This document shows, piece by piece, positions 50,366-54,852 of a stretch of 64,000 bases of DNA. Positions within the stretch are counted from its first letter, which is position 1. Every line of letters starts with the position of its first letter. Location of the stretch: NCBI GenBank assembly GCA_964016885.1, contig CAXHJY010001545.1, forward strand, positions 1 through 64,000, read 5' to 3'. The notes beneath the pieces were generated by a model. The model was not told the DNA's origin. It ran no database searches and saw only the letters and a list, made by a program, of their open reading frames with translations. Source of the DNA: Eledone cirrhosa. Lineage: Eukaryota. A program made the position numbers and the translations under genes.

Positions 50366-51169
50366 AGATATGAAGATGGGGAAGGCAACCGGTCCATCGG
50401 GTATAGCTGCCGAGATGCTGAAGGCATCTGGGTCTGTAGGTCACACTATAACCACACGTATTGTTAACCAGGTAATACTAGAAGGTGTCATACCAAAAGA
50501 TTGGTGCAGTAGCATCATTGTCAACTGCTACAAAGGTAAAGGCGATGCACTAGATAGAGGAAACTATAGAGGTATAAAGTTGATGGACCAGGTCATGAAA
50601 GTAACAGAAAGAGTTATAGCACAGTTGATTAGGGACCGGGTGAAAATAGACGAGATGCAATTTGGGTTTGTACCAGGAAGAGGCACCACTGATGCCCTCT
50701 TCCTTGTGAGGCAGTTACAGAAAAAGTACCTAGCTAAAAGTGAGCCACTCTACTTGGAATTTGTCGACCTTGAGAAAGCCTTTGACAGAGTTCCACGTGC
50801 TGTAATCTGGTGGGCTCTTAGAAAACTAGGAGTAGATGAATGGCTTGTGAAAGCGGTACAAGCCATGTATAGGGGAGCAGTCAGCAAAGTTAGGATTAGC
50901 AATGAGTATAGCGAGGAATTTAGCGTACAGGTTGGGGTCCACCAGGGCTCTGTTCTTAGCCCCCTCCTGTTCATCATAGTCCTGCAGGCAATAACGGAGG
51001 CGTTTAAGACCGGATGCCCGTGGGAACTCCTGTATGCTGATGACCTCGCACTTATAGCTGAATCTATGGTAGAACTAGAGAAGAAATTCCAAACTTGGAA
51101 GCAGGGACTAGAAAGAAAGGGTCTCAAAGTCAGCATGACAAAGACCAAGGTCCTTGTAAGTAGACGAGA
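50366..51169 (+). mobile_element. RTE subfamily-A internal RT fragment (5' part of the chimera)
   Basis: High identity to ~7280-8083. It ends at ...KVLVSRR, just before the PHD finger. Confidence 0.95.
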
Positions 51170-51170
51170 T

Positions 51171-53260
51171 ATGTCACTTTCGAAAAAAAATGGTGCTTTC
51201 AGCATCAATTCTCCGGTAGAAATTCGCAAGGAAACTGCTCTCAAAACGATAGTTTTTAGGACAGTTTCCAATTCTACCCTAAAAACAGTCCAATTGTCAC
51301 AGAAAGAAATTGAACTGGTTTTCAAAAATTCAATGAATGATATTGCATTCATTCAAAGAAGCAAACTTTTTGGGAGTATTTCGGTACTCATGAAGGATCA
51401 ATTGACGGCCCAAAATTACTCTGTGTCGCCAATTGTATCCAACCTGTACACCTTTTCCCCTACATACATGGGAAAAAGGACACAAAAGATCAGAATCACG
51501 AGTGTCACACCAAAGGTGAACATATGGTGGATACTGTGCGGCTTCATCAATTTTGATGAAGACAGAATACTGTCAGTAGGCAAGTCCCCCAGAGATGTAT
51601 TCAATGGGACTAGCATTGAAGTTCTGGTGCAAATGAGCCCAGAGCGAATAGCTATGATCCCACAGCGTGTACTCCTGGACAGACTCACCTACATAAACTT
51701 TTCGGTTGAGGGTAGGCGGCCTTCATGTTACCATTGCTTTAGCAGGGGTCACCTGAGGGCTTCCTGTCCTAAATTAATGAACCAAAAAAAGGCTCTTCTG
51801 CCGACACCCATCAAAACACAACCACCAACACCACCACAACAACAACACCAACACACAAAAATAACCACAACAAACACAGTCCCACCCAACCCCACTCCAC
51901 CTAAAACCACTGCAAAATCACATAGACACAACAGCTCCCCAAGACATACCCCTCCCCAATCACACAGACGATACAACAGATGAGGCTATCTCGCCATCAC
52001 CCAGTAAAGACGAGGGAGAACCCCATCGCTCGAAAAGAAAGAAAAGACATCACAAAAGCAAAAAACCAGCAAACACTACCACAAACATACAACCACCAAC
52101 ACAAACAACAAAAATATCACAAACAAAACCCCCACCTCCTGAAAACAAAATACCTACAACAAAACGAAAGCACACACCAAGAACTACAGACAAAAACAAA
52201 CACAACACAAGAAAATTACACTTACACTTACATAAACACTGAAAACAAAACACTAATGGAGACCATCACGAACGACCCTTCGGCTTTCACCGAAGGGAAA
52301 ACTTTCGCCCACTCTATTAAAAATAGCAAAAAACTGAACCTAAAACTGATTAGGGTCCCTATACAAACTTATAGGTCCCTAAAAGAAACATTTGAGAAGG
52401 ATGTGGGGAATTCCTGCGTGAAACCACTCAACCGCGTCCTTCTCAAATGCCTCCCCACCCCAGATACCCCCATCCCACCCCGCCGGAAACCACCACCCAT
52501 CCAGACAACCCCTCCAACGCCCCCATGGAAATCGTGCGGCCTGGTCCCCAGGAGACGAAGGGTGAGTGATCTCTTTTCCTCTTTTAACTTTTCAGCACCA
52601 ACATGGCCAATATAAGAGTTGGATGTGTGAGCGTACGCGGCCTGGGGATGCCCTGGAAACAGGGCAAACTCTTAAACGACCTCAGGTCGCACAGTATGGA
52701 TGTGGTAGCCATTTGCGAGTCCAGGATCCATGGCGAGCGACAGCTGGCCCCCATCTTCGATGACTTTGAGATCTACGCATCTCTCTGTCAACCGGGGGGA
52801 GGGGGCGGAGTTGCCGTTTTGCTGCGGAAACACCTGGGCCTCGTAACACAGACAGTGCATCTGGACCCGGAGGGTCGACTGGTGGTCCTAGACGTTGACG
52901 GTAGTGAAGGTGGAGCCTTCAGGCTGGTGGCCGCATATGCCCCATCCGGGACACCGCGGCCAGACTTCTTCAAACGTCTAGAGACTTTTCTGGGAACGTC
53001 CCGCTCCTTGCTTTTAGTGGGGGACTGGAATGGAATCCTAGATGCACGTTGGGACTATGTGGGAGCATGTCCCGATAAAGGGGGGTGTAACAGCCTCAAA
53101 CAGTTAATCGACCGATTTGACCTGGCCGATAGATATCGACTAGATTTTCTGACTGCGCCACTGTGGACGTGGAGTAATCGTAGCGGAACATCTAGATCGT
53201 ACCTAGATAGGGTTCTAGTTAGAAATAAGGATAGGGACATGTTAAGCTGTCCACAAATGT
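51171..53260 (+). mobile_element. Tx1/L1-clade LINE 5' portion: ORF1 (CCHC knuckle, P/T/Q-rich tail, one frameshift) and ORF2 APE domain
   Basis: ATG at 51171 (MSLSKKNG...); CYHCFSRGHLRASC. ORF2 starts at 52603 and overlaps the ORF1 stop: SVRGL, VAICESR, GGVAVLL, EGRLVV, AYAP, GDWN, WTW, SYLDRVL. Truncated before the SDH motif. Confidence 0.88.
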
Positions 53261-54848
53261 TTAGAATTAACAACGAATATAGTGAAGAGTTTAGCGTAAA
53301 AGTTGGCGTCCATCAGGGCTCTGTTCTCAGCCCCCTACTATTTATTATTGCCCTTCAGGCTATAACAGAGGAGTTCAAGACCGGCTGCCCATGGGAACTC
53401 CTATACACAGATGACCTAACACTTATAGCTGAATCAATGGCCGAGCTAGAGAAGAAATTCCAAACATGGAAGCACGGCCTAGAATCAAAAGGCCTTAAAA
53501 TTAACCTGGCTAAGACTAAAGTTCTAGTTTGTAAGAAAGAAAATAAGGCGGCGGTCCCTTCCGGGAAGTGGCCATGCTCAGTGTGTAGGAAAGGCGTAGG
53601 TAGAAACTCCATTTTGTGTCCCAAATGCAAAGTATGGGTGCATAAAAGATGTAGTGGGATCACAGGTAAGCTAACTAAGAACATAGATTTTACATGTGGC
53701 CGGTGCTCTGGTGCAATAAGTAGCAGCAAGTGCCCACTAAATACTAGCTCTTTCAACTCCGCAGAGGTTTCTATAGAAATAGTGGACAGCTTCCGTTACC
53801 TGGGTGACAAAATCAGCAGTGGAGGAGGGTGCTCTGAAAGTACAGTAGCTAGAATCAGAACTGGATGGAAAAAGTTCAGAGAGCTTATACCACTATTAGC
53901 CGCTAAAGGGTTCTCCCTAAAAATGAAAGGCAGGTAGTATGATGCCTGCATACGAACAGCAATGTTGCATGGCAGTGAGACCTGGGCATTGTGTGCAGAG
54001 GATATACGCAGACTAGAGAGGAACGAAGCTTGCATGCTCCGCTGGATGTGTAATAATAATATACGTGAACGGCAAAGCATAAACGAACTAAGGAAAAAAT
54101 TAGAAATAAGAGGGATCAGATGTTGTTTACTCGAGAGAAGGCTACGTTGGTATGGTCACGTGATGCGCATGAAAGACGACAGCTGTATAACAAAGTGCAG
54201 GGCAATAAAGATAGACGGTAGTCACGGAATAGGCAGACCTAGAAAAACCTGGGACGAGCTGATAAACTCCGACCTCACACACTTACACCTCTCCAAGACA
54301 ATGTCACTGGACCGAAACCTTTGGCGATACTCAGTAACAGAGAAGACCCGCCTTACCTAAATACAAAGTAAAACCTACTAGTCAGTAGGCATCTCTAACA
54401 AAATACACCCCCGTCCCACCCCATCCACACCGCCCCCTTCAATGCAAAGTTATGTTGGTGCCACAACATCCAGGCCGAAACAAACGAGATCGTGTAGGTG
54501 TCACGACAAAAAAACACACAGTCCACGCTGTAACGTGACCGTGTAGGCAACACGGTAAAAACCTCCCAGTCCCACACTGTAAATGTGGTTGGTGTTAGGA
54601 AGGGCATCCAGCTGTAGAAAACACGCCAGAGTGTCCACGCTGTAATGTGGCCGTGTAGGCAACACGGTAAAAACCTCCCAGCCCCACACTGTAAATGTGG
54701 TTGGTGTTAGGAAGGGCATCCAGCTGTAGAAAACCCGCCAGACAGTCCTATGCGAGCAAGACAACCACTCTTGCCTCAAGTGGGAAAACCCCCGTCCAAA
54801 CCCATGCAAGCATGGAACAGGGACGTTAAACGATGATGATGATGATGA

Positions 54849-54852
<4 letters not shown>
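53260..54852 (+). mobile_element. RTE subfamily-B 3' part (RT motif B' onward, PHD finger, C-terminus, long 3' UTR, (GAT)n tail)
   Basis: RINNEYSEEFSVKVGVHQGSVLSP...YTDD..., with many synonymous differences from subfamily A. One in-frame TAG at 53935; the same frame continues to 54360. Confidence 0.93.

Follow-up and report, generated by a model that had tools for sequence, protein, structure and literature searches.

A decayed composite of three LINE fragments from two clades in the genome of Eledone cirrhosa

Tripartite chimeras of long interspersed nuclear elements (LINEs), as well as hybrids between LINE clades, have already been published. In Magnaporthe grisea, double template jumps have produced tripartite WEIRD/Mg-SINE/MGL chimeras with 14-bp direct repeats (Gogvadze et al. 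2007, PMC2104539), and in Drosophila the R2/R1 hybrid SIDEs fuse LINEs of two clades (Eickbush and Eickbush 2012, PMC3414825). We analysed a 64,000-nucleotide stretch of Eledone cirrhosa DNA (GenBank assembly GCA_964016885.1, contig CAXHJY010001545.1, positions 1 to 64,000, forward strand; hereafter the window), in which a locus at 50366-54852 joins pieces of an RTE-type element (RTE-A), an L1/Tx1-type element and a second RTE-type element (RTE-B). The locus is a decayed composite of three LINE fragments from two clades and an ordinary relic of this known general kind. Literature searches, which covered open-access text, listed no RTE/Tx1 composite in cephalopods.

An earlier note, made from the letters of this DNA, had described three co-oriented segments from three LINE families with one 3′ tail, and this description stands: segment A (50366-51169) is followed by the middle segment (51170-53260) and by segment B (from 53261, with the tail). 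The features, which include an open reading frame (ORF1), reverse transcriptase (RT) sequence and a 3′ untranslated region (UTR), are as follows.

50356..50365, + strand: left flank, with a short TATAT at its end.
50366..51169, + strand: RTE-A fragment (segment A), an RT core (PF00078) cut at both ends and stopping before the PHD finger; 96.4-96.6% identical to window copies.
51166..51169, + strand: junction 1, a 4-nt overlap of RTE-A and the L1/Tx1 parent, placed by the end of the RTE-A match and one X3 family contig.
51170..52615, + strand: N-terminally incomplete remnant of an L1/Tx1-type ORF1, with a zinc knuckle (about 51723-51773) and frameshifts (51183-51190, near 51923 and near 52177).
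51183..51190, + strand: run of eight A, which almost all family contigs and reads have in a shorter form; only because of it are junction 1 and the ATG at 51171 in frame.
52603..53260, + strand: L1/Tx1-type APE endonuclease domain (PF03372), cut about 5-7 codons before the DH motif, as judged from homologs.
53261..54360, + strand: 3′ coding part of RTE-B (segment B), with the RT domains after motif A, a PHD finger at about 53575-53706 and a stop at 53935-53937, from sequence matches and family reads.
54361..54831, + strand: RTE-B 3′ UTR, of which about 112 nt are tandemly duplicated (54521-54748); 94-95% identical to the copy at 5209-5476, which is without the duplication.
54832..54852, + strand: single (GAT)7 tail, then an (AT)n tract.

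The middle segment is joined directly to A and B in the same orientation and without spacer DNA, and the (GAT)7 tail is the only one, neither junction bearing a tail. At its 5′ end the composite opens within RT coding sequence, at a point that corresponds to about 1.25 kb into the window copy, which is itself truncated. No target-site duplication could be resolved around the composite, its flanks sharing only low-complexity TA/GA matches, and no remainder of the Tx1 or RTE-A element was found in the 9.1 kb 3′ of the tail.

This layout resembles the WEIRD/Mg-SINE/MGL chimeras in that three co-oriented retrotranscript pieces are directly fused, with a 5′-truncated LINE and its tail at the 3′ end. 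Those chimeras have 14-bp direct repeats, and their upstream parts are either complete or truncated at the 5′ end alone; at the present locus both upstream parts are internal LINE fragments without 3′ ends, and no duplication is readable. The features of template-jump products of the MINE and U6-L1 type are thus divided: direct joins in the same orientation and a 3′ part consisting of a 5′-truncated LINE with its tail are found here, and upstream parts that are full-length or bear an RNA 3′ end are not. Because intact upstream 3′ ends are one defining feature, the locus is not classed as a template-jump chimera despite its similar layout. It shares with the R2/R1 SIDEs the fusion of LINEs from two clades and a shared target region; unlike the SIDEs, which as described are multi-copy, have a 5′ ribozyme and a 3′ UTR and are mobilised, it has no 5′ end or sign of propagation. 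As in the 5′ switching of SolRTE in plant RTE LINEs (10.1101/2022.11.04.512097), an RTE body has gained foreign 5′ sequence, but there 5′ UTRs are reported to be exchanged and the families keep amplifying, whereas here broken coding fragments are joined and the product is inactive.

Segment A is 96.4-96.6% identical to the RTE copies at 7280-8083 and 2085-1282, and the match ends sharply at 51169, before the position of the PHD finger, where the earlier note had also placed its end. Segment B is 76% identical to the same two RTE-A copies (over 53261-54350), and 268 bp of A recurs in B at 80% identity, so that a stretch of RT is indeed present twice in diverged forms. These values indicate that A and B belong to different subfamilies. 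Over the 89 codons of the overlap, 35 synonymous and 13 non-synonymous codon differences were counted. Public sequencing runs at a likeness threshold of 85% covered both segments deeply, indicating that A and B are two real subfamilies. A simple insertion of a Tx1 element into one RTE is ruled out by the 268-bp overlap and also countered by normal RTE-A reads, which run past 51169 into their own PHD region; that the locus is not such an insertion had been argued earlier and is borne out on both counts.

The RTE clade label of both segments is putative and was assigned from architecture rather than from an RT tree. The window copy at 5979-8909 has one frame of 976 codons, window copies bear (GAT)n tails, and full-length RTE homologs (1040-1100 amino acids) carry APE, RT and often PHD domains. 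For the window as a whole, the best homologs with names come from Argonauta hians and Octopus bimaculoides, in keeping with a host that is probably an octopod. RTE-related pieces make up 24 blocks and 11,210 of the 64,000 bases of the window (17.5%). Of 177 metagenome candidates, none could be confirmed as a relative of RTE-B; the host animal is not expected in this collection, so that the blank carries no weight. The PHD finger (53575-53706) lies inside the single ORF just after the RT, an arrangement common to many homologs from other animals (P0148-P0267), and one narrow literature search found nothing on PHD fingers in RTE ORFs. Two RTE-A copies, at 6033-8925 (+) and 140-2298 (-), are inverted about 4.8 kb apart and 99.4% identical over 1.86 kb; the plus-strand copy has the 976-codon open frame, is without 3′ UTR and tail, and is joined at 8925 to other sequence. 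Tandem duplications occur in the RTE 3′ UTR at 54521-54748 (about 112 nt) and 13983-14264 (about 140 nt), in the same region with different boundaries, and are absent from the copy at 5209-5500; they possibly reflect recurrent RT slippage.

The middle segment consists of an ORF1 with a CCHC knuckle and an APE domain (PF03372). A full-length relative, P0008, is 37.5% identical over the endonuclease domain, and its best match in the PDB is human L1 ORF2p (E 5e-73), which places the domain in the L1/Tx1 superfamily. From its sequence the middle segment is therefore assigned to this superfamily, and, as it contains no RT, the assignment stops above the Tx1 clade. The CCHC knuckle of ORF1 is visible here but falls below the Pfam cut-off (E 0.09), and is above the cut-off in the homolog P0050; an RRM and a ZCCHC3-type RNA-binding domain are leads from Atlas only. 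An ORF1 of type I, with RRM and CCHC knuckle, is described for Tx1 (PMC5203782). None of 295 candidates was a near-length homolog of the ORF1 remnant, and a PDB sequence search with the endonuclease piece returned one irrelevant match. The Tx1-side pattern of junction 2 was absent from viral, prokaryote and metagenome collections, where the host animal is not expected, leaving these blanks without weight. Elsewhere in the window, a separate 5′-truncated L1/Tx1-type 3′ piece (21961-21332, -) contains the C-terminal end of ORF2, a 3′ UTR and an A-rich tail of short length. AT tracts flank it on either side, a position that points to AT microsatellites as a target of this clade, too, in the window.

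At junction 1, the ATG at 51171 had been taken for the native start of ORF1, and this claim is contradicted by homologs that are longer at the N-terminus and by a family contig that extends 106 nt upstream. A search with ORF1 gave 109 matches, 34 of which start within the first 30 query residues. In 22 of these 34 the N-terminus is longer by 20 residues or more; the start lies within 10 residues in 7 and later in the remaining 5, and some of the short matches may be partial gene calls. In all 10 homologs picked from the top matches, 38-135 residues precede a conserved Gly that is residue 8 here. The X3 family contig (418 nt) aligns to 51166-51478 only, and its 106 further letters do not fit the stretch. 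As the stretch holds RTE-A and these letters still find no place in it, the parent continues upstream in non-RTE sequence. According to this one contig, the L1/Tx1 parent overlaps RTE-A by 4 nt at the junction.

The frame at junction 1 is also less telling than the letters suggest. The earlier note had both junctions in frame, which is correct for the letters of this copy and correct for junction 2, but junction 1 owes its frame to an extra A. The A-run at 51183-51190 is 1-2 bases shorter in X1 (1396 of 1396 depth), X3 (6.54 of 6.54), X4 (1455 of 1756) and X16 (69 of 86 reads), X1 and X4 being the same sample. For the family, this leaves the ATG at 51171 outside the ORF1 frame, and the extra A is either later slippage or a homopolymer or assembly error. 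Comparing the six residues after the junction with 10 homologs, the family frame was best for 3 (P0041, P0058 and P0084, including the two most similar homologs, P0041 at 37% and P0058 at 33%) and the window frame for 6, with 1 tie, while summed frame scores of +11 versus -17 favoured the frame of the window, against the reading from the family. This protein-level check is mixed, so the frame argument relies on the read data.

At junction 2, the ORF at 52588-53937 is open across the junction, confirming that an L1/Tx1-type APE domain is joined in frame to the RT of a different RTE subfamily. No indels were found in 52603-53934 among the 12 rows listed of 28, and, measured against RTE-A, the overlap on the RTE side of the junction is about 2 nt. 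The chance of at least one in-frame junction out of two is 5 in 9; one in-frame junction is thus unremarkable, and the open frame across junction 2 is likely due to chance.

The coding capacity of the composite has decayed. ORF1 contains two further frameshifts, near 51923 and 52177, which are absent from the earlier note, appear as indels relative to family reads and match frame changes in the window; they place the conserved ORF1 C-terminus in another frame. In the endonuclease, the first catalytic Asn is replaced by Ser, where all 24 motif-bearing homologs have Asn and family reads encode Asn (base 52631), and the domain is cut just before DH, part of a motif, [SG]CP-x7-xDH, found in 35 of 38 homologs. 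The RT of segment B reads YTDD, compared to YADD or FADD in 120 of 120 homologs among the matches listed, and its stop at 53935-53937, likewise not reported before, is without counterpart in the family. The expectation that the endonuclease-RT fusion is probably not catalytic, as it is without the terminal DH and RT motif A, is consistent with these data: both losses are seen, and the Ser, the YTDD and the stop add to them. Segment A carries six near-fixed differences from family reads, five of them non-synonymous. Over the locus, 13 of the 17 classified near-fixed coding differences are non-synonymous or nonsense (among the 40 rows listed, with 1,054 further rows), as expected for neutral decay. 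The locus is thus dead: it would yield no functional protein and is unable to move by itself. The data do not support the idea that in-frame module swapping provided an RTE with an ORF1 and a foreign endonuclease, as ORF1 is N-terminally cut and frameshifted, junction 1 owes its frame to the extra A, the endonuclease and RT are broken, and the locus is in neutral decay.

The same data bear on whether the locus is one copy of a propagating chimeric family, copied in trans by the RTE-B machinery and with its in-frame fusions under selection. The retained RTE-B 3′ UTR and tail and the open frame at junction 2 would fit such a family, and the R2/R1 hybrid SIDEs show that cross-clade non-autonomous families are possible (PMC3414825). 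However, the eight-A form is missing from the X1 and X3 depth and makes up no more than 17-20% in X4 and X16, the family contig from X3 runs upstream into non-RTE sequence, the composite has no 5′ UTR, promoter or 5′ transcription-processing module, and the locus decays neutrally. We regard a propagating family as extremely unlikely.

The three parts clearly exist independently of the composite. Summed X1 contig depth, which does not equal copy number, was about 0.7-2.3 x 10^4 for ORF1, 0.4-1.9 x 10^5 for the endonuclease, 3-8 x 10^5 for RTE-A and 0.5-1.9 x 10^6 for RTE-B. No piece bridging a junction was present among the 24 listed of 76,229, and contigs drop rare forms; the locus is likely single. 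No RNA run was listed as containing the sequence, which has no bearing on expression. The lack of a bridging piece among these 24, in a repeat-rich region, would also be expected if collapsed or chimeric reads had merged pieces of different loci during assembly. Against such an artefact, 76,205 further pieces exist beyond those listed and contigs lose rare forms, the 4-nt overlap at junction 1 is too short for an overlap misjoin, every segment has its own differences from the families, and neighbouring RTE copies have long open frames (976 codons), suggesting accurate sequence. We therefore consider an artefact highly improbable.

How the three pieces came together was assessed from their ends and flanks. 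AT tracts border the 5′ ends of four other RTE pieces in the window (fraction of AT/TA steps 0.69-0.93); in two of these pieces the 3′ end is bordered by one as well. Together with the AT tracts beside the L1/Tx1-type piece at 21961-21332, this indicates that both clades can stack at the same type of site. Both upstream pieces of the composite are without 3′ ends, RTE-A ending at 51169 and Tx1 at 53260, each inside coding sequence, unlike the published template-jump chimeras considered here, and deletion accounts for this no less well. Such 3′ loss has a local precedent in the young RTE-A copy at 6033-8925, which is without 3′ UTR and tail. Sites common to both clades and 3′ loss in this copy together favour an origin by stepwise stacking at an AT tract followed by deletions, a reading that we hold to be an even call. 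Copies of RTE-A, the L1/Tx1-type element and RTE-B would have inserted in succession into one AT-rich tract. The first two would have lost their 3′ ends through two deletions guided by microhomology, which could have taken place afterwards or while the 5′ end of each incoming element was being joined. Parents, breakpoints, absent 3′ ends and lesions are demonstrated, as are the AT tracts that flank other RTE and L1/Tx1-type copies in the window; the order of events, the deletions and the single locus are our inference.

Similar losses have been described. L1 insertion-mediated deletions and 3′-truncated non-classical L1 insertions (PMC1920257) likewise have no tail or duplication, are joined by microhomology and lose neighbouring DNA; unlike these primate cases, which are set against empty orthologous sites, the present case is known from the composite locus alone. 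For the cross-clade R2/R1 hybrids, the authors judged non-homologous recombination likelier than a template jump (PMC3414825). Several points nevertheless weigh against stacking and deletion. It needs two deletions, each breaking inside the upstream element and leaving no spacer, and insertion-linked deletions are rare in humans, at about 2% of L1 insertions (PMC1920257). By chance, all three pieces would share an orientation in only 1 case in 4, the left flank of the composite has just a short TA run (fraction 0.28), and no intermediate allele was seen. A double jump explains the co-orientation, the single tail and the lack of spacer more simply, and near-fixed differences per segment, among the rows listed (6/804, 8/2091 and 6/1220; p=0.45), indicate that the segments may be of equal age.

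The earlier note had proposed such a single event; its composite of three LINE families in two clades stands, and the module swap attached to it is not supported. In one event of target-primed reverse transcription, an RTE RT would have begun with 1.6 kb of RTE-B RNA, then switched to a broken L1/Tx1 RNA and from there to a broken RTE-A RNA, giving an insertion in an AT tract that was dead on arrival. Besides the co-orientation and the one tail, the (AT)n tract after the tail, the spacer-free junctions with a 4-nt overlap at junction 1, and a divergence from the families of similar order in all pieces agree with this. Double jumps are documented in Magnaporthe (PMC2104539), and RTE and L1-Tx1 families have both been recently active in Octopus vulgaris (PMC13282606, table 1). 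However, the event needs two acceptors ending inside coding sequence, and in the published chimeras considered here the upstream parts are full-length or have 3′ ends (PMC2104539; 10.1101/2025.02.02.635956), although truncated U3 and 5S partners do occur in the latter study. Moreover, the AT tract yields no readable target-site duplication, and segment A seems more diverged than the middle piece when compared with X3. We therefore retain the double jump as a real but lesser possibility. The last point is itself uncertain: differences from X3 contigs number 20/670 in segment A and 19/1544 in the middle segment (Fisher p=0.007), a contrast confounded by subfamily and by a different organism label. 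With one comparison at p=0.007 and the near-fixed differences at p=0.45, the dating of the segments is conflicting and does not decide the origin.

A third route to the same order of pieces is true nesting, in which Tx1 would have inserted into RTE-A coding sequence and RTE-B into the Tx1 endonuclease, and one deletion from (GAT)n tail to tail would have removed both remainders. Each 5′ junction does resemble a normal 5′ truncation, and two RTE tails would be co-oriented direct repeats, for which a single deletion suffices. However, no AT tract occupies the 30 nt on the left of either junction (fractions of 0.07 for junction 1 and 0.17 for junction 2), whereas other copies of both clades lie in AT tracts, and the 3′ end is of RTE-B type up to the tail, which limits the crossover to about 21 nt or the AT tract. 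We consider nesting very unlikely, and continue to favour stacking and deletion.

Other features of the window lie outside the composite. An imperfect palindrome of about 250 nt (55005-55253, 72% self-inverted) directly follows the AT tract 3′ of the tail and is possibly a small foldback or MITE-like element. Long ORF fragments lie at 10112-13594 (-) and 57485-58735 (-), which by eye, from their motifs, look like candidate Penelope-type retroelements; the fragment at 57485-58735 sits within an inverted repeat (55303-57682 / 58709-61120). Minisatellite arrays were found at 16929-18849, 23112-27383, 31133-31932 and 35923-36892 (self-BLAST offsets of about 25-60 bp).

As it stands, the locus matters little, being one inactive composite in a region of which 17.5% is RTE pieces, and it serves as a warning that an open frame across a junction can hang on a single homopolymer base. 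If a genome-wide survey found many co-oriented, single-tailed composites of equal age with clean empty alleles, this would demonstrate that LINE RT takes internal pieces of RNA from other clades as its acceptors in vivo, and the origin of mosaic LINE families would become testable. A wider version of this idea, which we consider unlikely, is that RTE RT in cephalopods serially jumps to 3′ ends left free when transcripts of other LINE families are sliced or degraded, so that one-step insertions of several families and across clades recur genome-wide. If this were true, the junctions would record where retrotransposon RNA is cut in the germline, possibly by piRNA slicing, and the composites would provide raw material for domain swapping between LINE clades.

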